A stretch of 64,000 nucleotides of DNA from Flavobacteriales bacterium (GCA_039931265.1 JBDTSG010000013.1:14711-78710); one strand, 5' to 3'; positions 38,218 through 57,573 are shown, numbered from the stretch's first letter. The notes: generated from the sequence alone by a model not told the origin. Program-made: numbers and translations.

Positions 38218-38252
38218 CCCCTCTCCACTGGAGAGGGGTTGTGGGTGAGGCG
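38218..38252. repeat. REP-like palindromic element, copy A (CCCCTCTCCACTGGAGAGGGG + GTTGTGGGTGAGGCG)
   Basis: A 10-bp-stem palindrome plus a GTGAGGCG tail, in the uppP-truB intergenic gap. On the minus strand it is followed by CTTTTG, so it could act as the uppP terminator. Other copies are at 56605..56638 (opposite orientation) and a degenerate one at 44338..44376. Confidence 0.6.
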
Positions 38253-39044
38253 TCAAACCAACTGCATCTGCACCCCCAGCGCCCAAAGCAACAGGATCGC
38301 ACCACCCACTACGATCCGGTACCAGCCGAACACCCCGAAGCCGTGCTTGGTAAGGAAGCCAACGAAACCGCGGATGGCGAGCACCGCCACTAGGAAGGCC
38401 ACCACGTTACCGATGGCGAACAGCTTCCAATGCTCGCTGGTGAAAGCGCCCCCATCGTCGATGTAGTCCCACAGGCTCTTGGCGGTAGCAGCGAACATGG
38501 TGGGCACTGCAAGGAAGAAGGAGAACTCGGCGGCTTGCTTGCGCGATAGCTTCTGGGTGAGGCCACCGATGATCGTGGCCGCGCTGCGGCTGACCCCCGG
38601 CACCATGGCAACACATTGGAAGCAGCCGATCAGCAAGGCGTTCCTCCAAGTGATGGGCTTCTCTTCGACCGCCTTCACGGGGAAGAGCCGATCAACGAAC
38701 AGGAAGAAGACGCCACCGAGCAGAAGCATCGATCCAACCACTTCCACATGCTCGAGCAGTTCGTCGATATGGCTTTTGAAAAGGAGCCCCGCAATGGCTG
38801 CCGGGATGAAGCCGACGATGAGCAGCGGATAGAGCGCCAAGCTGGCGAAGAACCGGCGCCAGTAAAGCACCACCACGCTGAGGATCGCCCCGAATTGGAT
38901 GGCAACGGTGAAAAGCTTCACGAAATCATCGGCGGCAATGCCCATGATCGTGCTGCCGATGATCATGTGCCCTGTACTGCTAACAGGGAGGAACTCCGTG
39001 AGACCTTCAATGATGGCCAGTACAATGGCCTCCCAAGTGGTCAT
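38253..39044 (-). CDS. uppP: undecaprenyl-diphosphatase (BacA/UppP)
   Basis: [22 protein letters not shown]-terminal signature. Eight TM helices. 263 aa. Confidence 0.9.
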
Positions 39045-39048
39045 CCGA

Positions 39049-39300
39049 TCAGGCCTCGGTGCGGTCGGCCTTCGGCTTCTTCATGATGGCGTAAACCACG
39101 AAGAGGTAGCCGATCATGCAAACGATAGGGGCAACTGTAACCCGGCGTGGGTGGAAGATCTCGGCTTCATTGAACACGTTGGGGTCGCCGGTGCCACCGC
39201 CGGACATGAGCACATACCCGAGGATCACGATGCCGATGCCGATAAGGAGCAGTCGATAGTTGACGCGGGTGAAAGCGAGTTCGTCCTGATGATCTGCCAT
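39049..39300 (-). CDS. DUF3098-family small membrane protein
   Basis: ATG at 39300 ([35 protein letters not shown]...). Two TM helices. Conserved position between ftsX and uppP. Confidence 0.55.
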
Positions 39301-39305
39301 GGTGT

Positions 39306-40184
39306 TCAGCTCCAATGGAGCTCGTCGAGATTCATGCGAATGTAGCGGCGCACGGCGAACCACGTGCTGACGAGCGCGATGAGCAAGCCCAAGGCGAGCA
39401 CCGCGCCGAACATTATCCCCAGCATCCGCAGGTCCAGAATAGCCTTCAGGTCGGGGACTTCACCGAACAGGTAGCGCAATGCCAGCACCAGCAATGCGAT
39501 GGCCAGAAGCCCGGCCACCAAGCCCTGCAGGAGGCTTTGCCCCAAGAACGGACGCTTGATGAACCAACTGGTGGCGCCAACCAAGTGCATGGTGCGGATG
39601 AGCATGCGCTGGCTGTAGATCGCCAAGCGGATGGTGTTGTTGATGAGCGCAATGGCCACGATCAGGAGCAGCAAGCACGTTCCCCCCAGGATCAACCAAG
39701 CCTTTTGCACCAGTTGATCCATGTTGTCCACCGTCATGCTGTTGTAGGCAACGTCCTGCAAACGGTCATCTTTCTTCAAGTGGTCCACGATCCAGTGCAT
39801 GCTGTCGGGCTGGGCATAGGCCGCCGCTATGCGCAGTTGGATATTGGCAGGGATGGGGCTTTCGCCGCCCAGCACTTCAAGGAAATCCTCACCGAGATCC
39901 TGTTTCGCCAGTTCCGCGGCTTCTTCAGCGCTGATCAGTTCCGTGGAGGCGGTATACGGTTCCGTGTCCAGTTCCTTCCGCAATTGCAGGATCTGCGCCT
40001 CCTTCAATACATGCTTCGGGAAGAGCTGCACCGTCACCTGCTCCTTCAGGTATTGCTCCACGCCGCGTGCGCTCAGCATGAACAGCCCCAAAGCACCCAG
40101 CAAGAACAACGTGAGCGTGATGCCCAGCGTGGTGCCGATGCTGCTGCTCCGTGCTTTCGCCCGCAATGACCTGTCGATGCCCAT
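39306..40184 (-). CDS. ftsX: cell division protein FtsX-like permease
   Basis: 292 aa. N-terminal TM. The periplasmic domain is followed by three C-terminal TM helices (LIALVSTWFAVRRYI). Confidence 0.8.
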   Translation of the reverse strand: MGIDRSLRAKARSSSIGTTLGITLTLFLLGALGLFMLSARGVEQYLKEQVTVQLFPKHVLKEAQILQLRKELDTEPYTASTELISAEEAAELAKQDLGEDFLEVLGGESPIPANIQLRIAAAYAQPDSMHWIVDHLKKDDRLQDVAYNSMTVDNMDQLVQKAWLILGGTCLLLLIVAIALINNTIRLAIYSQRMLIRTMHLVGATSWFIKRPFLGQSLLQGLVAGLLAIALLVLALRYLFGEVPDLKAILDLRMLGIMFGAVLALGLLIALVSTWFAVRRYIRMNLDELHWS

Positions 40185-40313
40185 CGTTGGGGCGAAGCTA
40201 TCCTCGTGCGGCCGCGCATGTCCTCCTCTTGCGCATGGGTTGTCAGTTGGCCGTTGTCAGTTCCCCTTACCAGCCCGCGCCCACCAGTACTTTCGCCCAC
40301 TTCAGGAAAGGAC

Positions 40314-43300
40314 ATGGGTTACGAGCACAGGGACATAGAGCGGAAGTGGCGCGAAGAGTGGCGCAAGCGTGGCACCTACCGCGTGGCCAACGACACGAGC
40401 AAGCCCAAGTACTACGTGCTCGACATGTTCCCGTACCCAAGTGGTGCCGGTCTTCACGTAGGGCATCCACTCGGCTACATCGCCAGCGATATAGTGGCGC
40501 GGTACAAACGCAACAAGGGATTCAACGTGCTGCATCCCATGGGGTACGACAGCTTCGGGTTGCCGGCTGAACAGTATGCCATCCAAACGGGCCAGCACCC
40601 GGCGAAGACCACGGAAGTCAACATTGCGCGTTACCGCGAGCAGTTGGACAACATCGGGTTCAGTTTCGACTGGGACCGGGAGGTGCGCACCAGCAACGCC
40701 GACTTCTACAAGTGGACGCAATGGATCTTCCTCCAGCTTTTCGATAGCTGGTATGATCATGCGGAGGACAAGGCCCGGCCCATCAGCGAACTGACCGAGC
40801 GTTTCGCGAAGCATGGCTGGAGCGGCGATGATGCTTGCGCGATCACCGGTAACGAAGAGCTGGATCCGCTCGCGGAATTCAGTCATTCCGACTGGGCCAC
40901 CTTCAGCGAGAAGCACCAGCAGCAGATCCTCCTGCGCTTCCGTCTCGCGTACTTGAGCGAGGCTTGGGTGAACTGGTGCCCTGCGTTGGGCACGGTGCTC
41001 GCCAACGATGAAGTGAAGGACGGTGTGAGTGAACGTGGCGGCCATCCCGTGGAACGTAAGCGGATGCCGCAATGGAGCATGCGCATCACCGCGTATGCGC
41101 AACGGTTGTTGGACGGACTGAACGATCTTGATTGGAGCGAGAGCATCAAGGAAGCACAACGCAATTGGATCGGCAGGAGCGAGGGGGCTTTGATCAGGTT
41201 CCAGTTGAAGGATCATCAGGAGAAGATCGAAGTCTTCACCACCCGCCCCGACACCATTTTCGGTGTCAGCTTCGTGACCCTCGCACCTGAGCATGAACTG
41301 ATCGAGAGGATCACACCACCGGAGAAGTTGGAGGAAGTCAGGGCGTACGTAACGCAGGCCAAAAACCGCAGCGAGCGCGAGCGTATGACGGAGGTGAAAC
41401 GTGTGAGCGGCGTGTTCACCGGCGCGTATGTGAAGCACCCGTTCACGCACATGGACATACCTGTGTGGGTGGGCGACTACGTGCTTGGCGGCTACGGGAC
41501 CGGCGCGGTAATGGCCGTTCCCGGTGGCGATCAGCGCGACTGGAATTTCGCGACGCACTTCAACATTCCTTTCACCGCCGTTACCGAGCATTGGGACATT
41601 TCCAAGGGCGCCGATGAAAGCAAGGAAGCCACGCTGGCCAACAGTGTTTTCCTCAACGGCATGAAGGTGGCCGATGCGATCCCGCGCGCCATCGATGAAC
41701 TGGAATTGCATGGTGTTGGCGAACGCCGCATCAACTTCCGGTTGCGCGATGCCGCCTTCGGGCGCCAACGCTATTGGGGCGAACCGATCCCCATCTATTA
41801 CAAGGACGGTATCCCGTATCCGCTGCCCGAAAGCGAACTGCCGCTCGTGCTTCCGGAAGTCGACAAGTTCCTGCCGACGGAGGACGGCGAACCACCACTG
41901 GCCCGCGCCACTGATTGGACCTACTTGGGCCACCCGCTGGAAACCACCACCATGCCCGGTTGGGCCGGTAGTAGCTGGTACTTCCTGCGCTACATGGATC
42001 CGAAGAGCGACGAACGCTTCGCTACGCCGGAGGCGATCAACTACTGGCAACAAGTGGATCTGTACGTGGGCGGCAGCGAACACGCCACCGGCCACCTGCT
42101 CTATTTCCGTTTCTGGACCAAGTTCCTGCACGACCGTGGCTGGATCAACTTTGATGAGCCCGCGAAGAAGTTGGTGAACCAGGGGATGATACAGGGGCGA
42201 TCGGCCAAAGTGTTTGCTCTTTTGGTTGGGCTTGAGCAGACGTCCAGTTCACCCAGTCCACAGGCAGAAGCTGAATCGGCCCTGCTCTCTGCTCCAATTC
42301 TAGTTTCCGCCGAATTCCAAGAACTCTTGGTGAAGGGAACTGAACAAAGTGCCAAAGCGCTTAAGGGGATTGAAGAGGCCGCACAACAGCACGCAGCTCG
42401 AGTCTTTGAATCCAAAGGCATTTCCGGCTATCAACTCTACGCGTTCGATGATCCAAGAACTGTCTTGCGAAGGGTGTACATCCCGATATCAGCGATGGTC
42501 GAGGATGGTGCTGTCGTCGACCTTGAAAAGCTAAGAGGGACATCCTCGGAATTCGACAACGCCCTATTTTTTCGTGGCGGAGAGCACTTCATGGCGGAGC
42601 GTGAAGTCGACAAGATGTCGAAGCGCTGGATGAACGTCGTCAACCCCGACGACATCGTCGCGAAGTACGGCGCCGACACCTTGCGCTTGTACGAGATGTT
42701 CCTCGGCCCCCTTGAGCAGAGCAAGCCGTGGGACACGAATGGCATTGAAGGCACCAGCCGGTTCCTGAAGAAATTCTGGAACTTGTTCCATGAAGAGGGT
42801 AGAGGAGGTAGGGGAAGCGATGGAGGTGAGGGACGGTTCAGCGTTAGCGACGAAGCTCCAACGAAAGCAGAACTGAAAGTCCTGCACGCAACCCTGAAGA
42901 AGGTGGAAGAGGACATCGAGAAGATGAGCTTCAACACGAGCGTGAGCCAGTTCATGATCGCGTGCAATGCCTTGCAAGAACTGAAGTGTAACAAGCGCGC
43001 GGTGCTGGAGCCGCTGACCATCGCCCTTGCGCCATTCGCACCCCACATTGCCGAGGAGCTATGGAGCTTGCTGGGTCATGCTGAGAGTGTGACCGGGGCG
43101 AAATGGCCCCAATGGGATGCCCAATACCTGGTTGAGGACAGCTTCAGCTACCCGATCAGCTTCAATGGCAAAACCCGCCTGCAACTGGAATTCCCCATTG
43201 GTCTCAGCAAGGAGGAAGTGGAGGCACAGGTGCTTGCCAACCCTGAGGTGCAAAGCCGTTTGGAGGGCAAGCCGCCTAAGAAGGTGATCGTGGTGCCCAA

Positions 43301-43325
43301 GCGCATCGTGAACATTGTGGTCTGA
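40314..43325 (+). CDS. leuS: leucine--tRNA ligase
   Basis: ATG at 40314. YVLDMFPYPSGAGLHVGHPLGY HIGH motif and KMSKRW KMSKS motif. 1003 aa, with low-complexity insertions (~42170-42600 and GRGGRGSDGGEGR). The track start at 40206 is an upstream extension. Confidence 0.95.
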   Translation: MGYEHRDIERKWREEWRKRGTYRVANDTSKPKYYVLDMFPYPSGAGLHVGHPLGYIASDIVARYKRNKGFNVLHPMGYDSFGLPAEQYAIQTGQHPAKTTEVNIARYREQLDNIGFSFDWDREVRTSNADFYKWTQWIFLQLFDSWYDHAEDKARPISELTERFAKHGWSGDDACAITGNEELDPLAEFSHSDWATFSEKHQQQILLRFRLAYLSEAWVNWCPALGTVLANDEVKDGVSERGGHPVERKRMPQWSMRITAYAQRLLDGLNDLDWSESIKEAQRNWIGRSEGALIRFQLKDHQEKIEVFTTRPDTIFGVSFVTLAPEHELIERITPPEKLEEVRAYVTQAKNRSERERMTEVKRVSGVFTGAYVKHPFTHMDIPVWVGDYVLGGYGTGAVMAVPGGDQRDWNFATHFNIPFTAVTEHWDISKGADESKEATLANSVFLNGMKVADAIPRAIDELELHGVGERRINFRLRDAAFGRQRYWGEPIPIYYKDGIPYPLPESELPLVLPEVDKFLPTEDGEPPLARATDWTYLGHPLETTTMPGWAGSSWYFLRYMDPKSDERFATPEAINYWQQVDLYVGGSEHATGHLLYFRFWTKFLHDRGWINFDEPAKKLVNQGMIQGRSAKVFALLVGLEQTSSSPSPQAEAESALLSAPILVSAEFQELLVKGTEQSAKALKGIEEAAQQHAARVFESKGISGYQLYAFDDPRTVLRRVYIPISAMVEDGAVVDLEKLRGTSSEFDNALFFRGGEHFMAEREVDKMSKRWMNVVNPDDIVAKYGADTLRLYEMFLGPLEQSKPWDTNGIEGTSRFLKKFWNLFHEEGRGGRGSDGGEGRFSVSDEAPTKAELKVLHATLKKVEEDIEKMSFNTSVSQFMIACNALQELKCNKRAVLEPLTIALAPFAPHIAEELWSLLGHAESVTGAKWPQWDAQYLVEDSFSYPISFNGKTRLQLEFPIGLSKEEVEAQVLANPEVQSRLEGKPPKKVIVVPKRIVNIVV

Positions 43326-43335
43326 TGGAACCCAG

Positions 43336-43400
43336 GCCACTGGCTGCGGGCCACGAGCCACGAGCCGACGAACGCACTGAGTGCGCCCGCAGCCAGTGGC
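43336..43400 (+). other. perfect 16-bp inverted repeat (GCCACTGGCTGCGGGC...GCCCGCAGCCAGTGGC) with a 33-nt loop, 10 nt after the leuS stop
   Basis: The arms are at 43336..43351 and 43385..43400. The loop contains the direct repeat CACGAGCCACGAGCC. No U-tract follows. Confidence 0.5.
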
Positions 43401-43450
43401 TCGCTGCCCGAGGCCGTATTGATCGGCACCCGCTTTGCGTTTCAAGGGAC

Positions 43451-44272
43451 ATGACCCGTAAGAGCCTGATCCTTTTCGCAGCCCTTTCTTTCCTGACCCT
43501 CGGCTTCGGACAAGCGAACGTTGGCCCAGCCGATCCCGCCAAGGGGAAGATAGTTGAACTGCGCAGGCTGCCGCATTCCGCCTTCAAACCGGGCGAGCGG
43601 TTGGAGTATGTGGTGCACTACGGTTTCTTGAACGCGGGTGTTGCCGTACTGGAATTGAAGCAGACCGATGTCGAGTTCCAAGGCCGACGGATGCTGCATG
43701 CCGTTGGCACGGGCAAGAGCATGGGTGCCTTCAACACCTTCTACAACGTCAACGACCTGTACGAGTCGTACTTCGATAGTGTGGGGGTGTTCCCTTGGGC
43801 CTTCAAGCGCCATGTGGATGAGGGTGGCTACACCTTCAGCCAGGACTACGTGTTCCTGCAGCACCGCGCAGAGGTTACCACGCAGGAGAAGAAGACCTTC
43901 AAGATCCCCGCACACACGCAGGACATGATCAGCGCTTTCTACTTCGCCCGCACTCTCGACTTCGGTAGCGCGGCCAAGGGCGATGTGTTCACCATTGATT
44001 GCTTCGTCGACAACGAAGAGTGGCCATTGCAGATGAAGGTGATGGGCCGGGAGACGATCAAACTGCGCAACGGGAAATACCGCTGCATCAAGTTCCAACC
44101 CATCGTGCAAGAGGGCCGGGTGTTCGAAACCAACGACGACCTGAACGTGTGGGTGACGGATGATGCCAACCACATTCCGGTGCTTGCCCAGGCCAAGGTG
44201 CTGGTGGGTTCCATCAAAATGGAGTTGAGCGGCTACAGTGGCCTCGCCAACCCGATCTCCAAAGTCGAGTAG
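43451..44272 (+). CDS. secreted DUF3108-like protein
   Basis: ATG at 43451 (MTRKSLILFAALSFLTLGFGQA signal). The C-terminal half KLRNGKYRCIKFQPIVQEGRVFETNDDLNVWVTDDANHIPVLAQAKVLVGSIKMEL resembles the DUF3108 family. That call is from memory, not searched. Confidence 0.45.
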   Translation: MTRKSLILFAALSFLTLGFGQANVGPADPAKGKIVELRRLPHSAFKPGERLEYVVHYGFLNAGVAVLELKQTDVEFQGRRMLHAVGTGKSMGAFNTFYNVNDLYESYFDSVGVFPWAFKRHVDEGGYTFSQDYVFLQHRAEVTTQEKKTFKIPAHTQDMISAFYFARTLDFGSAAKGDVFTIDCFVDNEEWPLQMKVMGRETIKLRNGKYRCIKFQPIVQEGRVFETNDDLNVWVTDDANHIPVLAQAKVLVGSIKMELSGYSGLANPISKVE

Positions 44273-44337
44273 CGTGCGATCGTGTTCACCACGGATGAAC
44301 GCGGATGGAATAAGAATGCCGTGGACAGCACCTCAGA

Positions 44338-44376
44338 CCATCTCCGCTGGAGAGGCAGTGTGAGGTGGGTGAGGTC
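44338..44376. repeat. degenerate copy C of the REP-like element (TCTCCGCTGGAGAGG...GTGAGGTGGGTGAGG)
   Basis: Intergenic between 44272 and 44456. It shares the CTGGAGAGG core and GTGAGG tails with copies A and B. Confidence 0.4.
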
Positions 44377-44455
44377 GCAATGAACACCCGACCCGGTAAA
44401 ATCACCGGGGTGGTAGCTGCGTTACACAGCAGGCTTGTCGCATTCTTGCGGTACC

Positions 44456-45724
44456 ATGAAGACCTGGCAGTGGTGGGTGATCGGGGTTGGCAGTGCCTCG
44501 GCGGTTTCGACGGTGGTGCTCACCACCGACTTGGCACCGCATGTAGAGTATGTTCCTGAGAAAGTCGTGGTGGTGGAAGACACCATGCCGGCAGCACCCA
44601 GTGCGTACGGTATTCCGCTGAGCGGTTTCGTTTTGGAACGCGGCACCGTGAAAAGCGGCAGCACCTTCGGCGACATGTTGGCGGTGCACGGGATCGGCCC
44701 CGGCAAGGTGGATAGTTTGGTGAAGCTGGCCGATCCCGTGTTCGACATCCATAAGATGCGCGCTGGCCATCCCTTCGCTTTCATCTTCACCGACGACGGC
44801 ACGCACACGCCGCAGTGGTTCGTATACGAGGCCGACCCGATCGAGCACATCGTTTTCAAATTGTCTCCGCTCAGCGTCGATGTGCACCATCGCCCGGTGA
44901 AGGTGGAGGAGCGGGCGGTGGCATGCACGGTGACCGGAGCGCTTTGGAACGACCTCGGATCGTGCGGGGCGGATCCGGCCCTTGCCATGAAGTTGGCGGA
45001 AGTGTTCGCATGGACCGTGGACTTCTACCGTATCCAGAAGGGTGAGCAGTTCACCATCGTGTACAACGAAACCACCGTGGACGATGAGCGGTATGGTGAT
45101 CCGGAAGTGCTGGGTGTACGCTATACCAGCGCCGATGGAGCAACAGAAGCGATCCTGTTCGGCAAGGATTCAACGGAGGCTTTCTTCGACCGCGAGGGCA
45201 ACAGCCTGCGCAAGGCCTTCCTGAAAGCGCCGTTGAAGTACAGCCGCATGAGCAGCGGATTCTCACAGCGTCGGTTCCATCCGGTGCAAAAGCGTTTCAA
45301 ACCGCACTTGGGCACCGACTATGCGGCGCCGTATGGAACACCGATCCTTACTGTGGGTGACGGTACTGTTGAGAAGACCGGCTACACAGCCGGTAACGGC
45401 AACTATGTGAAGGTGCGCCACAACGGAACGTATACCACCCAGTACCTGCACATGCGCAAGATCCTTGTGCGCCAAGGCCAGCATTTGCAACAAGGTGATG
45501 TTATCGGTGAGGTGGGGAGCACCGGTCTTGCGAACGGCCCCCACGTCTGCTTCCGCTTTTGGAAAAACGGCGAACAAGTGGATCATCGCAAGGAAGAACT
45601 ACCGAAGGCTGAACCGGTCGCGGAGGAAGACCGCGTCGCCTTCAACCAGCAACGGGACCTGCTGCTGGCCAAGCTCGATGCGGCTGAGCGTAAGCCCGAG
45701 CGTCGCACGCCCGTGCAGTTCTGA
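44456..45724 (+). CDS. M23 family metallopeptidase (LytM/lysostaphin-like)
   Basis: ATG at 44456 with N-terminal TM/signal (MKTWQWWVIGVGSASAVSTVVL). M23 catalytic region HLGTDYAAPYGTPILTVGDGTVEK...GNYVKVRHNGTYTTQYLHM...GEVGSTGLANGPHVCFRFW. Confidence 0.8.
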   Translation: MKTWQWWVIGVGSASAVSTVVLTTDLAPHVEYVPEKVVVVEDTMPAAPSAYGIPLSGFVLERGTVKSGSTFGDMLAVHGIGPGKVDSLVKLADPVFDIHKMRAGHPFAFIFTDDGTHTPQWFVYEADPIEHIVFKLSPLSVDVHHRPVKVEERAVACTVTGALWNDLGSCGADPALAMKLAEVFAWTVDFYRIQKGEQFTIVYNETTVDDERYGDPEVLGVRYTSADGATEAILFGKDSTEAFFDREGNSLRKAFLKAPLKYSRMSSGFSQRRFHPVQKRFKPHLGTDYAAPYGTPILTVGDGTVEKTGYTAGNGNYVKVRHNGTYTTQYLHMRKILVRQGQHLQQGDVIGEVGSTGLANGPHVCFRFWKNGEQVDHRKEELPKAEPVAEEDRVAFNQQRDLLLAKLDAAERKPERRTPVQF

Positions 45725-45784
45725 TCGGCGCAGCAATTCGTTCGATATGGAGGAGATGCCGAGAAAGTTCCGGCTGCATATGGT

Positions 45785-45810
45785 TTACAATATAAACATG
45801 TCTATGTTTG
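45785..45810 (+). promoter_or_regulatory. putative Bacteroidota sigma-A-type promoter (-7 box TATGTTTG at 45803..45810, AT-rich -33 region TTACAATATAAA)
   Basis: An AT-rich island in an otherwise GC-rich intergenic region. TAnnTTTG is the Bacteroidetes -7 consensus. It lies ~22 nt upstream of the ATG at 45832. Confidence 0.4.
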
Positions 45811-45831
45811 CGCCATCAAACCACTGAACAC

Positions 45832-46419
45832 ATGGAACGCGACATGACCCCTGACGAAAGTCTTCGCCTCATCGAAAGCATGATCGGCCAAGCCAAGAAG
45901 AGCTTCAGCCGCATGAGTTACTACTTCTTGTTGTGGGGAGCGCTGCTCATCGGCGCCATGATCGCCACGTACGTCTTCCGCAATGCACCGGCAGGGCCCG
46001 TCCATGGCGCGGCGTGGGGTGTTGCCGGGCTGATCGGCGGTATCCTGAGCTCGATCCATGGCGCCCAACAGGGCAAACGCGAACGGGTGAGCAACCCTAT
46101 GGACCGCGTGATCGGTTGGCTATGGGGCGCGTTCGTGATCACGTTGCTCGTAACGATCGCGTGCGCGGTTCCCAACCACGGCGATCCCGGCCCCATGATC
46201 ACTGTGCTAACGGGCTTGCCCACTTTCATGACCGGACAGATCCTTCGCTTCCGGCCGCTGCTTCTTGGAGGCATCCTGTTCTGGGTCGCCGGTGTGGTCA
46301 TGCACTTCACCGACGACGCATTGCTGCTGACCGTGCTCTACTGCAGCGCGATGTTCTTCGGGTACATCGTTCCCGGTCTCATGCTCAAGCGCCAAGAGAA
46401 TGTCCTTCGCGCCGCTTGA
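45832..46419 (+). CDS. hypothetical membrane protein (4-5 TM)
   Basis: ATG at 45832 (MERDMTPDE...); the track start at 45808 is a TTG inside the promoter box. It overlaps the downstream wHTH gene by 20 bp. Confidence 0.5.
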   Translation: MERDMTPDESLRLIESMIGQAKKSFSRMSYYFLLWGALLIGAMIATYVFRNAPAGPVHGAAWGVAGLIGGILSSIHGAQQGKRERVSNPMDRVIGWLWGAFVITLLVTIACAVPNHGDPGPMITVLTGLPTFMTGQILRFRPLLLGGILFWVAGVVMHFTDDALLLTVLYCSAMFFGYIVPGLMLKRQENVLRAA

Positions 46420-46687: not shown

Positions 46688-46785
46688 TTCCGTTCGTCGA
46701 AGCAATGCTCGGGCCTGTGCAACCCGTGGTATAGCGCCGTCGAGTTTCCGGATACCCTTTCCGACCTGCTCTCGTACACCGCCCC

Positions 46786-47733: not shown

Positions 47734-47735
47734 AC

Positions 47736-48269: not shown

Positions 48270-48294
48270 ACCATCGTACAACGCCCCCTTTTCC

Positions 48295-49629: not shown

Positions 49630-49630
49630 T

Positions 49631-50566
49631 ATGAAGCGCTTCTTCATCATAGCGGTGCCCGTGCTCGTGCTTTTTGCATGCAGCAAGGAGCAAGTGAACC
49701 CGTACGACCAATTGGTGCATGCATCTCCGAACCCGCCTGCCGAAAGCCTGCCGCAGGACAATTTCGCCTGGTTGCACCAGCGCGTGTTCCGCCCCACCTG
49801 CGCCAACAGCGGTTGCCACGACGGCCATTTCGAGCCCGACTACCGCACCATTGCCAGCGCTTACAACTCATTGGTGTATGCCCCGGTGATCAACAACGAT
49901 CCACAAGAGAGCTTCACCTACCGCGTGTTGCCCGGCAACCCGGCTTTGTCCTTTCTCCACGAACGCCTCACCGTCTTCGTGCCGAACACCAGTGGCGTGA
50001 TGCCCTTGGAAACCATCGGCACCGATTGGTCGGACAACCAAGGCGCTTACATCGCCGCGATAACGCAATGGATCCAAGGCGGTGCCAAGGACATGTTCGG
50101 CGCCTTGCCTTCACTCGGCAACCGCGAGCCGCAGGTAACCGGCATGTTGGCCTTCGCTCCATGGAGTACGACCAACCCCTTCCCGCGCGGCACTGACCCC
50201 GGTGTACAGCCGATCGAAGTGACGGGCAACAGCATCGACCTCTGGTTCGCTTTCGCGGATGATAGCACGGCAGCGGAATCCCTCAGCTACAACAAGGTCA
50301 AAGTATCCACCGTGCTCGGCGGGTTCGCGCTGGTTCCTGAACAAATGCTTGCGGTCGGCAGCACACTGAACGGCCCCGATTTCGGGAACAACACCACAAC
50401 GTTCACGCACAAGGCCACCCTCGACCTGTCCACGTATGCACCGGGGACGATGCTCTTTGTGCGCAGCTACGTGAACGATGGTGACCACATCGATAACACC
50501 GAGGTGCCGAACGACGGCACCACATCGCCGATGCTCGGCTACTTCACGCTATTGGTCAACCCATGA
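49631..50566 (+). CDS. hypothetical lipoprotein with single CX4CH motif (CANSGCHDG)
   Basis: Lipobox LVLFACS. 311 aa. Confidence 0.45.
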   Translation: MKRFFIIAVPVLVLFACSKEQVNPYDQLVHASPNPPAESLPQDNFAWLHQRVFRPTCANSGCHDGHFEPDYRTIASAYNSLVYAPVINNDPQESFTYRVLPGNPALSFLHERLTVFVPNTSGVMPLETIGTDWSDNQGAYIAAITQWIQGGAKDMFGALPSLGNREPQVTGMLAFAPWSTTNPFPRGTDPGVQPIEVTGNSIDLWFAFADDSTAAESLSYNKVKVSTVLGGFALVPEQMLAVGSTLNGPDFGNNTTTFTHKATLDLSTYAPGTMLFVRSYVNDGDHIDNTEVPNDGTTSPMLGYFTLLVNP

Positions 50567-51009
50567 AACAGCTCATCGGCATCGTGGCCGCCGCTGCGGT
50601 GTTGACCTCCTGCAAGAAGGAGACGGTTGACAGTGTGCCACCGGAGATCGCGCTGGTGAGCGTTGGCCCCGGCACCGTGCTTCAGTTCGAGGACCGCGTG
50701 ACGCTCCATTTCACCTACAAGGATGGCAACGGTGATCTGGGCCAGGACGATCCCGACGCTTACACGCTGTGGGTGAAGGACAGCCGCTTGAACGCGGCGG
50801 ATGGCTACCACATTCCGCCGTTGGCCCCTCCGGGCGAGGAGATCCCGATCCAAGGCGAGCTCGAAGTCGAACTGGTGCCTCTCTTCCTGCTCGGGAGCAG
50901 CGGCGAGGAAACCATGACGTACACGTTCCACATCGAGGATCGCGCCGGTCATCATAGCAACGAGATCGTCACCTCGCCGATCGTCATCGTGGACAGCCTG
51001 CCTGATTGA
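50563..51009 (+). CDS. hypothetical small lipoprotein
   Basis: ATGA overlap with the upstream gene. Lipobox AAVLTSC. 148 aa. Confidence 0.45.
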   Translation: MKQLIGIVAAAAVLTSCKKETVDSVPPEIALVSVGPGTVLQFEDRVTLHFTYKDGNGDLGQDDPDAYTLWVKDSRLNAADGYHIPPLAPPGEEIPIQGELEVELVPLFLLGSSGEETMTYTFHIEDRAGHHSNEIVTSPIVIVDSLPD

Positions 51010-51013
51010 TAGG

Positions 51014-54000
51014 ATGTACTTCCGCAAGCCCATAGCCTTTGCGTGCATTGCCTTTTCGGCGATGACCACGGACGCACAGGTGCTGCAGGAATTCAACATG
51101 ACCGACACGGTGGTAACGCTTTGCAAAGGCATCCTGCTCGATAGTGAAGACGGTCCGGGAGGAAACATTTACAGCAACAATGAAGACTACACCTTCACGA
51201 TCGATGCGGGCGGCCCTGTGACGCTCGTGTTCGATGAGGTGTTCTGCACCGAGCAAGGTCTCGACCTGTTGACCTTCCACGATGGGCCTTCGATCCTTTC
51301 GCCGCAGATCGGTCCGGCTTACAGTGGTATCGTGGCGCCGCCGCCGATCACGAGCACGAGCTATTACCTCACCGTCCACTTCGTTACCGACGCGAACGTT
51401 GCCTACTGTGGTTTCGAGGCGCAATGGACCAGCGTGGTGATCCCACCCGTACCTCCGGTGATGACCGTTCCCACGGCACCGCTCTGCTCTGCGAATACGA
51501 TCGACCTGGCGTTCAGCTATCCGATCCCCTGCGACTCGATAAACCCCGATGCCTTCGTCATCTCGGGTTCCAACAACCCGGCGGTCACGAGTGCCATACC
51601 CACCAACTGCATCGGTGGCGAAACACAAACGATGCAGCTCGGGATCGACCCGACCTTCGACCGGAACTGCCCTTACGACATCGCCTTCACCATCGGTATC
51701 CGCGATCGGTGCGACTCGCTGTGGTACTTCACCATAAGCGCCAATACGCAGATCGCGACTTGTCCGCTCGGCGTGTTGATGGAACTGACAGAGGACACGA
51801 TCTGCGCTGGAAGCTGCACGGAACTGTTCGCCGATGTACAAGGCTGTCTCACCTACGCGTTCGCTTGGAACAACGGGTTGCCGAACAGCGCAGGACCGCA
51901 TACGGTATGTCCGAACGTCACAACAACGTACACGGTCACCGTTACGGAGAGCGGCACAGGTCAAACGGCGACCGGAAGTATTACGGTGGTCGTGTTCGAC
52001 TTGCAGGTGAGCGGGCCCACGGGTGCGATCTGCCAGTCCGATCCGGCGTTCAACTTGGGCGCAACACCGCCGGGCGGTACTTGGAGCGGTGCGGGTATCG
52101 TCGACTCGCTTGCGGGAACATTGGATCCCGATACCGCCGGTCCGGGAGTCCACACGATCACCTATTCCTTGGGGGGGTGCAGTGAGGATCTCATCGTCAC
52201 CATCGATAGCATGGATGCCGGCGTTACCCACGCGGCATGTCCCGGCACTGCGCCGTTCTTCATTCCGTACGCAACACCAACGGGTGGAATCTGGACCGGA
52301 ACCAATGTGCAGTCGAACGGCTTGTTCGACCCGAATGCCATCGGATCCTACCTGCTCACCTACACCGCAGGCAACTGCAGTGATACGGTAACGGTGAACG
52401 TGGACAACATCGTCGGTCAGTCGCAATTGGACACTGTTTGTCAGAGCACGTACCCCTTCAACATCCCCGTATCGCCCTTTGGCGGGCGGTGGAGCGGGCC
52501 GGGTATCGTGGATACGCTGTATGGCACGTTTGATCCTGACGAGGCCGGTGGCGGCTTGCATACGTTGCTGTATGACATGCACGGCTGCGACATGTCGTTC
52601 ACGATCTACGTGAAGGCCATCGACATCGGCGACGATCGCAGCGCATGTCCTTCTCAAGCACCGTTCGTGCTCACGCCTGCTGCGATCCCGCCGGGCGGTG
52701 CGTGGAGCGGTTTGGGGATCGCCGATGCGAGCACCGGATCGTACGATCCCATGCAAGCAGGGCTTGTTTGGGACGTGGTGACTTACGCGGCACCGAACGC
52801 CTGCGTGGATACCATCGGCATCCTGGTGGGTTGGACACAAGTGAACGACGACACGCTTTTCTTCTGCGAGGGTGATGGGGCATTGATCCTGGACGAGAGC
52901 ACCACGGGCCGTACCCCATGGGATGGCATTTGGACAGGCGCCGGCATCGCGCAAGACAACGATGGCAATTACTTCTTCGATCCCGCCCTCGCCGGTGTCG
53001 GTGAGCATCTCCTCCACTTCGATGCGAACACATGTGGCGACAGCATGCTGGCTATCGTACACCCTGCAACACTGGGTGTGCCCGATATGATCGTGTGCAG
53101 TGCCACGGGGCCATTCCTTTTGGCCGCCGTACCTGCAGGTGCGACTTTCACGGGTGATGGTGTGACCAGCACCGGCGTGTTCGATCCCGCGCAAGCAGGC
53201 GCTGGCCCGCACGCTATCGTCTACGACGCACCGGCGGGATGCTCGGATACGATCAACATCGATGTCTATCCATTCCAACAAGCCATCATCACCGGGGTGC
53301 AGGATACCTACTGCAGCAACGATGTATTGGTAAGCGTGCAACTGTTTCCTGCCGGCGGTGTCTTCACCGGATTGCCCGATACGCTCTTCAACCCATCGTT
53401 GCTTACCGATGGCATCTATGAACTTGTATACAGTGTCGGCTTCGGCCAATGCTTGAGCAGCGATACGCTTGTCTTTACGGACTACGGTGCCCTGAGCACG
53501 CAGGTGCTCGTGAGCAACAACCCGATCTGCGGCGACGGTGGATCGGTGATCGAGGTCGTGCCCAGCGGCGGCAACCCGAACTATCCCGTGAGCTATCAGT
53601 GGAGCGACGGGGCGTTCCCGATCGAAACGAACAACGTGAGCCCGGATAGCACAACGCTGTACATCGTGACGACCACGGACGGGTGCAGCGATCCCGTGAT
53701 CGACAGCGTGCTCATTACCGTGCATCCGCCGTTCCAGGAAGAATTCGCGTTCAGTGCGATGCAGTGCTACGGCGAACCCGGTTATGTGTCCGGTAGCGTG
53801 ATCGGCACCGGCACGTTCACGTTCTCATGGGATACCGGGTCGCTGCAGACCGGCGACAGCGTGAACCTTCCCGCCGGTGAGCTGGTGCAGGTGCATGTGG
53901 AGAACGACGCGACTGGTTGCAGCCACGACACATTGATCCAAGTACCGAGCTGGCCTGCGATCACCGCCTTGTTCAGCGCGAACCCGGATGAACCCTGTGT

Positions 54001-54487
54001 TCCTTGGGACCAACGCGATGTGACCTTCATCGACCTCAGCAACAACGCTGTTGGCGGGTACTGGGTGATCGATGGTGATACGGTTCCTTATTCCGTGGGC
54101 GGTGATCCGAACTACGACCTGGGTCACGCCGGTTACTACAGTGTTCAACTGGTGGTGTGGAACCAAGGCAATTGCACCGATAGCATGAGCCTCGACATCT
54201 GCATCGAGGACAGCGAAGCGATCTTCCTGCCCGATGCCTTCAGCCCGAACGGCGACGGCAGCAACGATGTGTTGTATGTCCGAGGTGGCACCATTGCCGG
54301 CATGGAGTTCGCCGTGTACGACCGTTGGGGCGCGCGCGTATTCAGCAGTACGCAACGGGAACACGGCTGGGATGGGAACACCAACGATGCGCAAAGCCCG
54401 AGCGGTGTCTACCTCTATACGCTCCAAGCCACGCTCGACAACGGTGACGTCATTGAACGCACGGGTAACATCACGCTGGTACGATGA
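51014..54487 (+). CDS. large Ig-like-repeat adhesin with T9SS type B (CHU_C) C-terminal domain (SprB-type cargo)
   Basis: Signal peptide MYFRKPIAFACIAFSAMTTDAQ. ~10 repeats of PPGG(T/A)WSG(A/P)GI...FDPxxAGxGxHTIxYxxxxC. C-terminus IFLPDAFSPNGDGSNDVLYV...VYDRWGARVFSS...WDGN. Confidence 0.8.
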   Translation: MYFRKPIAFACIAFSAMTTDAQVLQEFNMTDTVVTLCKGILLDSEDGPGGNIYSNNEDYTFTIDAGGPVTLVFDEVFCTEQGLDLLTFHDGPSILSPQIGPAYSGIVAPPPITSTSYYLTVHFVTDANVAYCGFEAQWTSVVIPPVPPVMTVPTAPLCSANTIDLAFSYPIPCDSINPDAFVISGSNNPAVTSAIPTNCIGGETQTMQLGIDPTFDRNCPYDIAFTIGIRDRCDSLWYFTISANTQIATCPLGVLMELTEDTICAGSCTELFADVQGCLTYAFAWNNGLPNSAGPHTVCPNVTTTYTVTVTESGTGQTATGSITVVVFDLQVSGPTGAICQSDPAFNLGATPPGGTWSGAGIVDSLAGTLDPDTAGPGVHTITYSLGGCSEDLIVTIDSMDAGVTHAACPGTAPFFIPYATPTGGIWTGTNVQSNGLFDPNAIGSYLLTYTAGNCSDTVTVNVDNIVGQSQLDTVCQSTYPFNIPVSPFGGRWSGPGIVDTLYGTFDPDEAGGGLHTLLYDMHGCDMSFTIYVKAIDIGDDRSACPSQAPFVLTPAAIPPGGAWSGLGIADASTGSYDPMQAGLVWDVVTYAAPNACVDTIGILVGWTQVNDDTLFFCEGDGALILDESTTGRTPWDGIWTGAGIAQDNDGNYFFDPALAGVGEHLLHFDANTCGDSMLAIVHPATLGVPDMIVCSATGPFLLAAVPAGATFTGDGVTSTGVFDPAQAGAGPHAIVYDAPAGCSDTINIDVYPFQQAIITGVQDTYCSNDVLVSVQLFPAGGVFTGLPDTLFNPSLLTDGIYELVYSVGFGQCLSSDTLVFTDYGALSTQVLVSNNPICGDGGSVIEVVPSGGNPNYPVSYQWSDGAFPIETNNVSPDSTTLYIVTTTDGCSDPVIDSVLITVHPPFQEEFAFSAMQCYGEPGYVSGSVIGTGTFTFSWDTGSLQTGDSVNLPAGELVQVHVENDATGCSHDTLIQVPSWPAITALFSANPDEPCVPWDQRDVTFIDLSNNAVGGYWVIDGDTVPYSVGGDPNYDLGHAGYYSVQLVVWNQGNCTDSMSLDICIEDSEAIFLPDAFSPNGDGSNDVLYVRGGTIAGMEFAVYDRWGARVFSSTQREHGWDGNTNDAQSPSGVYLYTLQATLDNGDVIERTGNITLVR

Positions 54488-55590
54488 TGAACTCACCCCA
54501 CACGCCGCAGGCCACAGGCCACAGGCTTCCCGCGCGCTATTCAAAGCCTGTGACCTGTGGCTTGAAGCCCGTGGCGATCTCTCTCACTGCTTCACTGCTC
54601 AGCTGCTTCAACGCTCCACTGCTCGCCCAGGACGTTCACTTCAGCCAGTTCTTCAATGCGCCTTTGGTCTTGAACCCGGCCAGTGCTGGTGATATCGATG
54701 GCGATCAGCGCGCCGCATTGATGTACCGTACGCAATGGCAGAGCGCCGGAAGTCCGTTCCGCACGCAGGCCTTCAGCTACGATCTGCCGCTGTTCCGCCA
54801 GCGCATGAAGGGACGCTACTTGGGAGTAGGTGTGCACCTCTTCAGCGACAAGGCGGGCAACACCAAGTTCGGCGATACGCAGGGCAACCTCAGCGTGAGC
54901 TACGCGATCAAGAGCGGCGAGAACACGTTGCTCTCTTTCGGTATCCAGGGCGGATACGGGCAGCGTAGCGCGGTGCTCAACGGCTTGCGCTGGGACAACC
55001 AATACAATGGCGCGGGCTTCGATCCGGCATTGCCCACGGGCGAAACGATGGCCGACGCCAGTACCAACTTCGTGGACTTCGGCGCTGGCGTTCTGTGGAA
55101 GAGTGAGTTCAAGAGCGGTGCACGGTGGAAGTCAGGCGCGTCGGTGTACCATCTGAACCAACCAACCGTCTCGCTTTTCGGCAGCAACGACGACAAGCTC
55201 TTGCGCCGCTATGTCGTACACGCTGAGATGCGTTTCGAGGGCAAGAAATGGACGTGGCTGCCGAAGGTCTATGTGCAACAACAAGGCGGCAACAGGGAGA
55301 TCGTGCTCGGGGCATTGATGCACCGCCGAATCGGACGCGATAGCCGCAGTACCACGTACCAGAACAGCAACGCGATCCATCTGGGTTGCTTCTACCGTTG
55401 GGGCGATGCCGTAGTACCCACTGTGCAGTTCGAATGGCAACGCAAACTGGTTGCAGCGCTCAGCTACGACATCAATGTGAGCCGCCTGCGGGCGCAGACC
55501 AGCATGCGCGGCGGCATGGAAGTATCGATCCAATGGATCGGTGTGTTCAACGACAAGCGCATGAAGCTGTCGAAGAGCAAGGTCTATTGA
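54484..55590 (+). CDS. type IX secretion system membrane protein, PorP/SprF family
   Basis: ATGA overlap with the adhesin stop. The PorP/SprF N-terminal signature LAQDVHFSQFFNAPLVLNPASAGD. 368 aa, a beta-barrel-sized protein. Confidence 0.85.
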   Translation: MMNSPHTPQATGHRLPARYSKPVTCGLKPVAISLTASLLSCFNAPLLAQDVHFSQFFNAPLVLNPASAGDIDGDQRAALMYRTQWQSAGSPFRTQAFSYDLPLFRQRMKGRYLGVGVHLFSDKAGNTKFGDTQGNLSVSYAIKSGENTLLSFGIQGGYGQRSAVLNGLRWDNQYNGAGFDPALPTGETMADASTNFVDFGAGVLWKSEFKSGARWKSGASVYHLNQPTVSLFGSNDDKLLRRYVVHAEMRFEGKKWTWLPKVYVQQQGGNREIVLGALMHRRIGRDSRSTTYQNSNAIHLGCFYRWGDAVVPTVQFEWQRKLVAALSYDINVSRLRAQTSMRGGMEVSIQWIGVFNDKRMKLSKSKVY

Positions 55591-55599
55591 ACGAGGAGA

Positions 55600-57573
55600 T
55601 CACGGGATCTCCACCCAATCACCGCCGTTCTTGATCAAAGCGATCAGCTCATCCACGGCTTGCTCTGCGGGCACGTTGCGCTTCACCACGTTCTTCTCCT
55701 TGTACAACGTGATCACCCCTGGCCCAGTGCCCACGTAACCGTAGTCGGCGTCGGCCATCTCGCCGGGGCCGTTCACGATGCAACCCATGATGCCGATCTT
55801 GACACCTTTCAGGTGGCTGGTGCGCGAGCGGATCTTGGCGGTGGTCTCTTGCAGATCGAACAACGTACGGCCACAGCTCGGGCAACTGATGTACTCTGTT
55901 TTGCTGATGCGTGTGCGCGTGGCTTGAAGGATCCCGAACGCCGTGCGGTTCACCAGTTCATCGGTGCCGCATTTCTCCAGACAGATCATCACGCCATCGC
56001 CGAGGCCGTCGAGGAGCAGCGCACCCATGTCGGTGCTGCTGTGCAGCATCAGTTGCAATTCGTTCAAACCCATATAGTCGCGACCGATTATCACGGGCAC
56101 ATCGCATTTCGCTTCCATGAGCTTGAAGAAGGCCGCACGTTGTTCGGCCATGCCATGCTCGTTCTCGGTGTCGAGCAGCAGTACGCATGTTCCGTCTTCA
56201 CTCAAGGCTTCGATGAGGGTATCCGACAAGTCGCGTAATTCAGCGCAGATGAAGTTCAGGTGCGGATGTGTGGCGGCCCCGTCCAGGAATTCCGCCGGGC
56301 GGAGGAAGGGATAGTGCCGGGGCTTGTCTTGGTCCTTCAACCAAGTTGCGTGCTCCTGTATCACGCCCAGTGTTCCCGGTATCTCGAAGTCAACGTGGTG
56401 ATCGCCGACGAACAGATAGTCGCACGCTTGATCGGTAAGGTTCCACTTATCCAATGGAACACTGTAGTGGTAGCCCCAACTGAACAGCGACGCCTGTGTG
56501 ACCTTCTCCTTCGTGCTCAGGTCGGCGATCACGATGGGTACGTGGCGCGCACCGATGTTCATTACCTCGCGTGTGTGGCGACGTTGGTGTGCGAAGGGTG
56601 AAAACGCCTCACCCCGGCCCTCTCCAGTGGAGAGGGGGTAATGCAGATCGTGGATCGGTGCGTGGCCTCGCCGCATGGTGTACCGGTCCACCAGTGCTTG
56701 CGCCACCGGGATCTCCGCCTCTGGTTCTTCCGTGAGGGAAACACGCACCGTATCACCGAGCCCATCTTCCAACAATGCACCGATGCCCACGGCGCTTTTC
56801 ACACGGCCGTCCTCACCATCGCCGGCTTCGGTAACACCGAGGTGCAGCGGGTAATCCCAGCCGAGCCCCATCATCTTGTTCACCAAGAGCCGGTAGGCCT
56901 GCACCATCACTTGGGTATTGCTGGCCTTCATGCTCAGCACAATGCTGTGGAAGTCCTCATCGCGGCAGATGCGCAGGAACTCGAAAGCGCTTTCCACCAT
57001 GCCGAGCGGTGTATCGCCATAGCGGTTAAGGATGCGATCGCTGAGGCTGCCGTGGTTGGTGCCGATGCGCATGGCGGTGCCGTGCTCCTTGCAGATGCGC
57101 ACCAGCGGCGTGAAGCGGTCGCGGATGCGTTCGAGCTCAGCATCGTACTGAGCGTCGGTGTACTCGCGCACATCGAACTTCTTCTTGTCGGCATAGTTGC
57201 CGGGGTTCACGCGCACCTTCTCCACGATGCGGGCAGCGATCTCGGCCGCGTTCGGTGTGAAGTGGATGTCGGCCACGAGCGGTGCCTTGAAGCCTTGCGC
57301 GTGCAACTGCTTCTTGATCTCAGCAAGATTCTCCGCTTCTTTCTTGCTCGGTGCGGTGATGCGCACCAGCTCACAACCCGCCTTGATCATGCGGATGCTC
57401 TGCGCCACCGTGCCTGCGGTGTCCATGGTGTCGGTGGTGGTCATGCTCTGCAACCGGATCGGATGCGCGCCACCGATACCCACGTCGCCCACCATCACCT
57501 CGCGCGTACGCCAGCGCTCATAACGCGAGAGCGAGGGGCAGTAGGTTGATGGTGCAGTGGATGTCGGGGGCAT
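55600..57573 (-). CDS. ispG: 4-hydroxy-3-methylbut-2-en-1-yl diphosphate synthase (IspG/GcpE), long Bacteroidota form with insert domain
   Basis: N-terminal TIM-barrel region IGGAHPIRLQSMTTTDT. C-terminal 4Fe-4S region CPSCGRT...GCIVNGPGE. 657 aa. Confidence 0.9.
   Translation of the reverse strand: MPPTSTAPSTYCPSLSRYERWRTREVMVGDVGIGGAHPIRLQSMTTTDTMDTAGTVAQSIRMIKAGCELVRITAPSKKEAENLAEIKKQLHAQGFKAPLVADIHFTPNAAEIAARIVEKVRVNPGNYADKKKFDVREYTDAQYDAELERIRDRFTPLVRICKEHGTAMRIGTNHGSLSDRILNRYGDTPLGMVESAFEFLRICRDEDFHSIVLSMKASNTQVMVQAYRLLVNKMMGLGWDYPLHLGVTEAGDGEDGRVKSAVGIGALLEDGLGDTVRVSLTEEPEAEIPVAQALVDRYTMRRGHAPIHDLHYPLSTGEGRGEAFSPFAHQRRHTREVMNIGARHVPIVIADLSTKEKVTQASLFSWGYHYSVPLDKWNLTDQACDYLFVGDHHVDFEIPGTLGVIQEHATWLKDQDKPRHYPFLRPAEFLDGAATHPHLNFICAELRDLSDTLIEALSEDGTCVLLLDTENEHGMAEQRAAFFKLMEAKCDVPVIIGRDYMGLNELQLMLHSSTDMGALLLDGLGDGVMICLEKCGTDELVNRTAFGILQATRTRISKTEYISCPSCGRTLFDLQETTAKIRSRTSHLKGVKIGIMGCIVNGPGEMADADYGYVGTGPGVITLYKEKNVVKRNVPAEQAVDELIALIKNGGDWVEIP
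56605..56638. repeat. REP-like palindromic element, copy B, embedded in-frame in ispG (encodes ...YPLSTGEGRGEAFSP...)
   Basis: Its reverse complement CCCCTCTCCACTGGAGAGGGCCGGGGTGAGGCG matches copy A (38218..38252): 20 of 20 in the palindrome plus the GGTGAGGCG tail. Confidence 0.55.

Follow-up and report, generated by a model that had tools for sequence, protein, structure and literature searches.

Few short repeats of bacteria are as conserved and as widespread as the BoxC/PIT/TM elements, whose origin and mobilising protein have both been unexplained since 1992. In the TM element (earlier described as BoxC or PIT), a C-rich stem, a loop and a complementary G-rich stem are followed, after a short second loop, by another G-rich block, which obeys the triads G·G:C, A·A:T and T·A:T (PMC4666352). 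As single-stranded DNA, the element folds in vitro to a purine-motif triplex, as seen by circular dichroism and nuclear magnetic resonance for TM_ECO only (PMC4666352). Escherichia coli K-12 carries 23 TM copies, all of them intergenic (e.g., CCCTCTCCCTGTGGGAGAGGGCCGGGGTGAGGGC, near-identical to the element described here) and with no mobility genes found near them, and 3610 copies are recorded in 262 proteobacterial genomes, with GC-rich relatives in cyanobacteria (PMC4666352). In E. coli, PIT elements acted neither as promoters nor as terminators, according to work cited by Holder et al. in 2015 (PMC4666352); local sequence variability is raised around TMs, and TM-induced local mutagenesis has been proposed (PMC4666352). 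The present work concerns a TM element in a 64,000-nucleotide stretch of a metagenome-assembled genome of a Flavobacteriales bacterium (GCA_039931265.1, JBDTSG010000013.1:14711-78710; hereafter the window), one copy of which resides in frame in the essential gene ispG (gcpE). Taken jointly, it is probable that the element belongs to the TM class, that both of its intact copies were inserted, and that the copy in ispG is translated. Palindromes of selfish character are also said to live in frame in protein-coding, even essential genes of Rickettsia; these Rickettsia palindromic elements (RPEs), reportedly described by Ogata et al. in 2000, are said to be translated as extra surface peptide segments, to measure ~100-150 bp and to be restricted to that genus. 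RPEs are mentioned in a review of MITEs (miniature transposable elements with inverted repeats; PMC10969869).

The window element is a Bacteroidota form of the BoxC/PIT/TM intrastrand-triplex motif, with blocks of 8-9 nt and a rare ACT loop. It is ~35 nt long, being composed of a 9-bp hairpin, a spacer of 1-3 nt and a GGGTGAGG tail, and is represented in the window by two intact copies and a degraded one. Copy A (38218..38252, + strand) reads CCCCTCTCC-ACT-GGAGAGGGG-TTG-TGGGTGAGG-CG, with the C-stem at 38218-38226, the loop ACT, the G-stem at 38230-38238, the spacer TTG and the third block TGGGTGAGG at 38242-38250, followed by CG. Copy C (56605..56638, - strand, i.e., the coding strand of ispG) reads CCCCTCTCC-ACT-GGAGAGGGC-C-GGGGTGAGG-CG; its hairpin with the loop and its tail GGGTGAGGCG are identical to those of copy A, and the spacer alone differs. 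The degraded copy B (44338..44376, + strand) reads CATCTCC-GCT-GGAGAGG-CAG-TGTGAGG-T-GGGTGAGG, with an imperfect 7-bp stem (6/7 pairs) and a duplicated tail block. All three copies named in the original prediction, including the reverse orientation of the one at 56605..56638 and the degenerate state of the one at 44338..44376, were recovered at these positions. The pattern CTCTCCASTGGAGAG with at most two mismatches matched the window three times, versus 0.12 matches expected. That the similarity is fortuitous, or that the copies are artefacts of assembly, is practically negligible as an explanation: the source is indeed a metagenome-assembled genome, but none of 100 dinucleotide-preserving shuffles reached three matches, the same 657-aa IspG product is recorded in both NCBI and Logan (the contig read being a Logan assembly), and equivalent inserts are found in many independent assemblies, complete genomes included.

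When the blocks were compared under the triad rules, copy A gave 9/9 Watson-Crick pairs and 8/9 purine-motif triads, and copy C gave 8/9 and 8/9, with 9/9 for the TM_ECO control from E. coli in the same script. The strict TM_ECO pattern, CCCTCNCCC-N3-6-GGGNGAGGG-N3-GGGNGAGGG, is missed by one terminal base in each block (CCCTCTCCA / TGGAGAGGG / GGGTGAGGC), the window element being an 8-nt-register variant of it. Judging from this architecture, the window element can potentially adopt a triplex fold as single-stranded DNA. The label "REP-like" (repetitive extragenic palindromic), given to the element at first, is inappropriate, the G-rich tail being the defining third block of BoxC/PIT/TM. The REP-type tetranucleotide head (GTAG/GTGG) is absent beside the hairpins of copies A and C, and no gene for a REP-associated tyrosine transposase (RAYT) flanked by repeats was found within the 64-kb window. 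The element also differs from MITEs: it is a solo unit without terminal inverted repeats, and comparison of filled and empty alleles revealed replacement of 6-21 nt without target-site duplication.

The gene that hosts copy C (55600..57573, - strand) was identified as ispG by its Pfam GcpE and GcpE_C domains and by a 100% match to a protein of a Flavobacteriales metagenome-assembled genome. It encodes a long, Bacteroidota-type enzyme of 657 aa with an extra middle domain. The hairpin-to-tail direction of copy C coincides with the coding direction and, in agreement with the first reading of the locus, the copy is in frame on the 657-aa open reading frame (ORF) and encodes PLSTGEGRGEA, residues 313-323 of IspG. 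None of the 30 closest orthologs (80-89% identity; 647-653 aa, a few of ~672 aa) has the insert; they read ...HHVP(I/L)DPF..., whereas the window protein reads ...HYPLSTGEGRGEAFSPF..., with PLSTGEGRGEAFS in place of VP(I/L)D. At the DNA level, 33 nt of the element stand in place of two codons, GTG CCC (V-P), which results in a net gain of nine residues with the frame kept. In an AlphaFold2 model built on a 32-sequence alignment (mean pLDDT 72.5), residues 300-346 form a coil without secondary structure that contains the insert 313-323 and extends from the last helix of the TIM barrel (284-299) to the strand with which the following domain begins (347-351); residues 308-330 have pLDDT <50. The original prediction had placed the copy inside the insert domain of IspG, whereas the model puts it in the inter-domain linker just before that domain. 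Its proposal of a mobile palindromic unit inserted into a permissive loop is supported, as the closest orthologs are empty and the site is an unstructured inter-domain coil; the ~11 residues proved in the ortholog alignment to be a lineage-specific insertion, and independent conservation of the motif, the other option then considered, is refuted. Copy C is thus a real, lineage-specific, in-frame insertion in ispG. Five of the six reading frames of the element are open, GG-TGA-GG alone closing the sixth, which explains the survival of such a unit in a gene, and the insert would be expected to be translated as a Gly-rich loop of this essential enzyme.

The linker of ispG is, on comparative sequence data, a hot spot of TM insertion. 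More distant Flavobacteriales orthologs possess other G-rich inserts at the same position of the IspG alignment, and at the DNA level these are elements of the same kind in the same orientation: CCCCTCTCC-TTG-GGAGAGGGG-TT-GGGGGTGAGG in locus L003, the same with the loop TCG in L004, and two elements in tandem in L005. In 5/5 sequenced cases, a distance of exactly 9 nt separates the tail codons GGT GAG (GGT GAA in L004) from the CCN TTC (Pro-Phe) of the host that follows. Orthologs with the same residues but divergent DNA had been named at the outset as evidence that would speak against an insertion; similar G-rich residues do occur in the distant orthologs, but an element of this kind, not diverged DNA, encodes them, which points to recurrent occupation of one site, not to an ancestral peptide. 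When 118 IspG sequences, masked for the insert, were joined into an un-bootstrapped neighbour-joining tree, filled alleles took ~12 separate positions among empty relatives, which keep a uniform segment of eight residues, mostly ending in VP(I/L)D. All solo copies in ispG have one orientation and the same boundaries, and for several filled alleles there is an empty partner of 95-97% identity. Among the metagenomic IspG loci listed (at least 80, with 45-70% identity, from the wider Bacteroidota), most are empty and some contain TM singles or inverted pairs (L256, L287). A generic detector of hairpin plus GGTGAG, applied to ~20-kb ispG flanks of four other genomes, gave no convincing TM copies besides those in ispG, and the element density outside ispG is accordingly low in these regions.

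One further metagenomic locus bears on the possibility that the window element is a classical REP mobilised by a RAYT, with the copy in ispG being an accidental REP insertion. At positions 1915-2877 of L292 (metagenome contig Ga0209697_10027286), a genuine REPx2-RAYT-REPx2 unit is in frame at the same ispG linker, within a stop-free frame of 980 aa; the RAYT is IS200-like (Pfam Y1_Tnp, E = 1.8e-6), its HUH and Tyr motifs are intact and the repeats are inverted on both sides. The window element is likewise a short palindromic dispersed repeat. However, the L292 repeats (AGTGGCT-SGGCG-WCC-CGCC-CAG) are unrelated to it in sequence, the hairpins in the window have no head of the GTAG/GTGG type beside them, and no RAYT-like ORF exists in the window. 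Moreover, the sequence of the window element is conserved throughout the phylum and beyond, not species-specific, and the partner at related loci is a DUF559 protein (see below), not a Y1 transposase. An origin by RAYT is very unlikely on these grounds.

Species-representative genomes were scanned with a superfamily pattern, and at least 120 loci with at least 142 copies were listed. They belong mostly to Flavobacteriales, Chitinophagales, Cytophagales, Sphingobacteriales and Bacteroidales, with a few in Proteobacteria, Chloroflexota and others, and their flanks are unrelated. Species of Hymenobacter, Mucilaginibacter and Flavobacterium are among the carriers. The ACT loop shared by copies A and C is found in 2 of 142 copies among the matches listed, both in another Flavobacteriales metagenome-assembled genome, and this rarity indicates that copy C belongs to the element pool of its own lineage. 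Within stop-to-stop ORFs of at least 200 aa, and with at least 40 aa on each side, are 46 of the 142 listed copies, evenly split between the two orientations; random positions would fall in genes more often, so that the copies are depleted from genes, yet far from excluded, unlike those of E. coli. The confirmed hosts are leucyl-tRNA synthetase (LeuRS; three recurrent sites), IleRS, AspRS, MetH, an IcmF-like mutase, MiaB and a NuoM-like protein, as well as asparagine synthase (AsnB), an Lhr-type helicase, DNA methylases, a histidine kinase and others. In seven Sphingobacteriales (Mucilaginibacter) loci (L021, L033, L045, L057, L064, L110 and L121), a conserved GAGAGGACTT precedes the hairpin by 20-25 nt, which suggests a longer composite or nested element.

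The TM element was also found in 95 stretches of viral contigs. No DUF559 gene was detected beside TMs in 0.87 Mb of TM-selected viral DNA, and phage as a vehicle of such units is therefore unsupported. Dense TM arrays were observed in some viral or proviral contigs, namely L197 (IMG/VR 3300028586_000777), L140, L142, L180 and L200; in L197:10425-11881, nine copies form inverted pairs within a ~335-bp tandem unit, outside any long ORF.

Two of the IspG proteins, P0065 (815 aa) and P0111 (829 aa; L302:6001-8490), contain a DUF559 domain in frame at the linker, bracketed by inverted TMs: DLTPGPSPGERG represents a TM of opposite orientation, and PSPPERGLGGEV one of the same orientation. The inserted domain matches the DUF559 structure 3hrl with E = 2e-14 and, weakly (E = 0.11), the PD-(D/E)xK homing endonuclease I-Bth0305I (3r3p). 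Motifs for splicing are absent from the composite ispG insert, in which Pfam gives only DUF559 and MTES_1575 and the junction residues are TM-encoded peptides. A DUF559-like ORF is present in 18 of the 120 TM-selected loci listed, in 16 of these not more than 175 nt from a TM and typically in the arrangement TM(-)...DUF559...TM(+), and none was detected in 0.49 Mb of ispG-selected Bacteroidota DNA. The TM-DUF559-TM units measure 434-635 bp, have the outer ends CCTCACCCC... and ...GGGGTGAGG, and are in frame in LeuRS, IspG, MetH, IcmF, Lhr and a methylase. Selection by DUF559 itself yielded 18,632 matches with E <= 1e-3 among 1.84 billion representatives, of which the best 150 were read; in this best-150 sample, 25/129 DUF559 domains are embedded in long proteins. 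In a looser pattern with an internal control, TM-type peptides reached 0.78 per 100 aa in the flanks of DUF559 versus 0.05 elsewhere in the same proteins (~15x). In E. coli K-12, the DUF559 gene ycjD ends in ...RRSPSP and a stop, its last codons being a CCCTCTCCC fragment, and TM_ECO #9, one of only 23 copies in 4.6 Mb, lies 165 nt downstream of ycjD on the same strand, between ycjD and fabI (L301, NC_000913.3 1349800-1352300). Separately, four PP2C/SpoIIE-type phosphatases (P0129, P0139, P0158 and P0163) bear DUF559 units at a single site, between ...DIVSGDFYWF... and ...CTGHGVPGA..., apparently another hot spot.

These units also bear on a rival in which TM copies insert independently of any protein, by template switching or strand slippage at hairpins, so that their recurrence in ispG would reflect a filter of selection and DUF559 would be a separate passenger. 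In its favour, the ispG linker also accepts unrelated inserts (the RAYT unit and other variable peptides), copy C matches the subfamily of its own genome, target-site duplications are lacking, and no mobility genes lie near the E. coli copies (PMC4666352). Identical boundaries and a single orientation in ~12 clades are, however, hard to obtain by untargeted events in a coil of ~45 residues, especially as the element has open frames in both orientations, and the tight bracketing of DUF559 by inverted TMs in many host genes is not expected of an unrelated passenger. We therefore regard such protein-independent insertion as rather unlikely, even if it is the strongest of the competitors.

Filled and empty ispG alleles were compared at their junctions in three close pairs (95-97% protein identity), and in 3/3 of them mismatches are concentrated there. 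The composite-filled P0111 is 96% identical to the empty P0106 (L303), which marks the insertion as recent, and 570 nt replace 21 nt without target-site duplication. In this pair, the 150 nt located 5' of the junction contain 21 mismatches, versus ~1 per 30 nt farther out, almost all of them synonymous, and 13 mismatches fall within 90 junction-proximal nt against a background of 5.4% (P about 1e-3). The solo-TM pairs P0037/P0044 (97%) and P0080/P0119 (95%) have 30% mismatch within 20 codons of the insert versus 7-9% elsewhere (P = 3e-14 and 9e-11), with eight synonymous and no amino-acid changes in one bin. Co-conversion from a diverged donor allele would be expected to leave such a trace. 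The filled ispG of L302 is directly followed by an extra gene of 278 aa (L302:8734-9570), which is missing in the 96%-identical relative L303.

Based on these data, a scheme can be proposed in which TM units of Bacteroidota would be the inverted ends of units of 434-635 bp, which carry the gene for a DUF559 PD-(D/E)xK endonuclease and settle in frame in permissive loops of conserved genes. Filled alleles would then pass between lineages by homologous recombination, leaving a short foreign tract at the junctions. The ispG copy of the window would be a solo unit at the hot spot, at the position of the right end of a composite unit, and would persist because the linker tolerates it. As to its route of arrival, which we infer, copy C may have inserted locally at the precise boundaries of the hot spot, or an imported filled allele may later have been overwritten by gene conversion from the ACT-loop subfamily of the genome. 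Since the window encodes no endonuclease or transposase, any mobilising protein would act in trans. The element is best viewed as selfish or neutral DNA. In its full form, the proposal reads that TM repeats are the inverted ends or landing pads of widespread, selfish and non-splicing DUF559 units. Essential genes (LeuRS, IspG, MetH and others) would house these units in frame in permissive loops, gene conversion stimulated by the endonuclease would spread them, and the ispG insert of the window would be a solo remnant or half-site; we advance this proposal tentatively, as somewhat less than an even proposition. The steps of DUF559 mobilisation and homing, taken by themselves and drawn by analogy, have about the same standing, that is, a possible course of events that falls a little short of being probable.

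Several observations weigh against this interpretation as a whole. Clustering of the DUF559 domains does not follow the host site: copies from IcmF, from the methylase and from IspG each pair with copies from LeuRS. The units have therefore also moved between genes, and site-specific homing by itself does not account for everything. The 64-kb window contains no ORF resembling DUF559, RAYT or another transposase, and the solo copies of the window are linked to DUF559 units by analogy. The junction divergence could also arise from TM-induced local mutagenesis (Holder et al.) or from relaxed constraint on the linker; in the pair formed by the window and L002, divergence rises near the insert and amino-acid changes rise as well, hence this pair is not decisive. 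A Ser follows the insert, and its codon varies with the lineage (TCA, TCG or AGC), which fits poorly with a single shared donor allele. Finally, the tree of IspG was built by neighbour joining and carries no bootstrap values, and an in vivo triplex in E. coli is unsupported (PMC4666352).

Copy A occupies the 50-nt gap between the stop codon of uppP (bacA; 38253..39044, - strand; stop at 38253-38255), located upstream in the operon, and the most likely ATG of truB (37399..38202, - strand; ATG at 38202-38200). It starts immediately after the uppP stop and is oriented opposite to the transcription of both genes. In L004, where the BacA-TruB synteny is preserved, the two genes are only 2 nt apart, which identifies copy A as an insertion, too. 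The peptide PLSSGEGLLKP, which the original prediction read through this copy, does exist in the longest-ORF extension of truB (upstream TTG, to 38286); it is probably untranslated, since the ATG-initiated product begins with MPTIHP, and the extension is most likely an artefact of ORF calling. The structure and terminator check proposed for copy A yielded a stable hairpin without a terminator-like T-run.

A role of the element in place, as an RNA attenuator or stabiliser between uppP and truB, as a translational pause site between the IspG domains, or as a selected linker peptide, was also considered. The hairpins are stable as RNA (-19.5 to -28.6 kcal/mol), the position in ispG is exactly at a domain boundary, and a Ser, variously encoded, recurs behind the insert, all of which might be expected of a functional element. 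Nevertheless, close relatives lack the element at both sites and the same sequence occurs in unrelated genes in both orientations. No terminator-like T-run follows copy A or C, terminator and promoter scans around both gave nothing associated with the element, and an Rfam scan of the whole window at gathering thresholds returned no family match; PIT, as cited in PMC4666352, had no promoter or terminator activity in E. coli. A function in place is consequently improbable, to much the same degree as an origin by RAYT or marginally more so.

Copy B is situated between a DUF3108 gene and an M23 peptidase gene, in a spacer ~85 nt longer than in L004 and L005; the spacers cannot be aligned between genomes, which leaves copy B unproven as an insertion. 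The M23 peptidase ORF (44435-45724, + strand) is listed from a TTG, and comparison with L004 and L005 points to an ATG a few codons downstream (MKTWQWW..., ~44456) as the likely start. In leuS (40206-43325), the stretch GAAGAGGG...GGAGGTGAGGG (about 42792..42836, + strand) encodes EGRGGRGSDGGEGR, a G-rich insert of ~11 aa with respect to other LeuRS sequences, with its DNA ending in GGAGGTGAGGG. The position, one of the recurrent LeuRS sites, is empty in L099 and L074 and is filled with PSPSEKGRG in L016 and SPPSEGLG in L040, which are TM-type peptides of other Bacteroidota. The leuS insert may be an eroded fourth TM copy, a weak candidate with no C-stem left.

The class of the element is already known; what appears to be new is its abundance in Bacteroidota, its frequent in-frame life in essential genes, its codon-precise recurrence at the ispG linker and the leuS sites, and the bracketing of DUF559. 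No report of in-frame TM copies, of TMs in Bacteroidota or of a link between DUF559 and repeats was found in the searchable open-access literature, an absence that is not proof. TM repeats are abundant in Bacteroidota, seem able to live in essential genes as translated loops, and reoccupy codon-precise sites, and the uncharacterised DUF559 family, which includes E. coli YcjD, provides a testable candidate partner for their spread. In practical terms, marker genes, leuS and ispG among them, acquire lineage-specific indels through TM inserts, and spurious "PLSxGEG / LTPxPSPKERG" peptides and ORF extensions enter annotations; the inserts also flag insertion-tolerant positions of proteins, which is useful for protein engineering.

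In comparison with known systems, the composite units in IspG (P0065/P0111), LeuRS, MetH and other proteins, and not the window copy, resemble homing endonuclease genes (inteins and group I introns; I-Bth0305I) in that an endonuclease ORF is found at conserved sites of conserved genes with a patchy distribution, and, perhaps, in the locally raised divergence at the junctions, which may reflect co-conversion tracts or else local mutagenesis or relaxed constraint. Inteins and introns splice out, whereas the TM-DUF559 units are read through and stay in the host protein, possess neither intein blocks nor an intron, and end in TM repeats. With REP/REPIN-RAYT systems, TMs share the occurrence of short palindromes as singlets and inverted pairs and the bracketing of a gene by inverted copies, as TM brackets DUF559. 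There, however, the partner is an HUH Y1 transposase and the repeat is species-specific with a tetranucleotide head, whereas the partner of TM is a PD-(D/E)xK (Vsr-like) nuclease and its repeat is conserved across phyla and headless. RPEs have in common with the window element the in-frame residence at tolerated positions, but differ in size (33-36 nt for the window element), are unrelated in sequence, and are not known to carry the third G-rich block or an associated endonuclease cassette. The closest match remains BoxC/PIT/TM_ECO (Bergler 1992; Hoyne et al. 2000; Holder et al. 2015), with the same three-block architecture and triads, near-identical core words CCCTCTCC / GGAGAGGG / GGGTGAGG, and a dispersed occurrence with unrelated flanks, frequent inverted pairs and no transposase alongside. 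TM_ECO was catalogued in Proteobacteria, with GC-rich cyanobacterial relatives, and is always intergenic in E. coli, whereas the host of the window element belongs to Bacteroidota, and copy C, like about one third of the sampled Bacteroidota copies, is in frame inside a gene.

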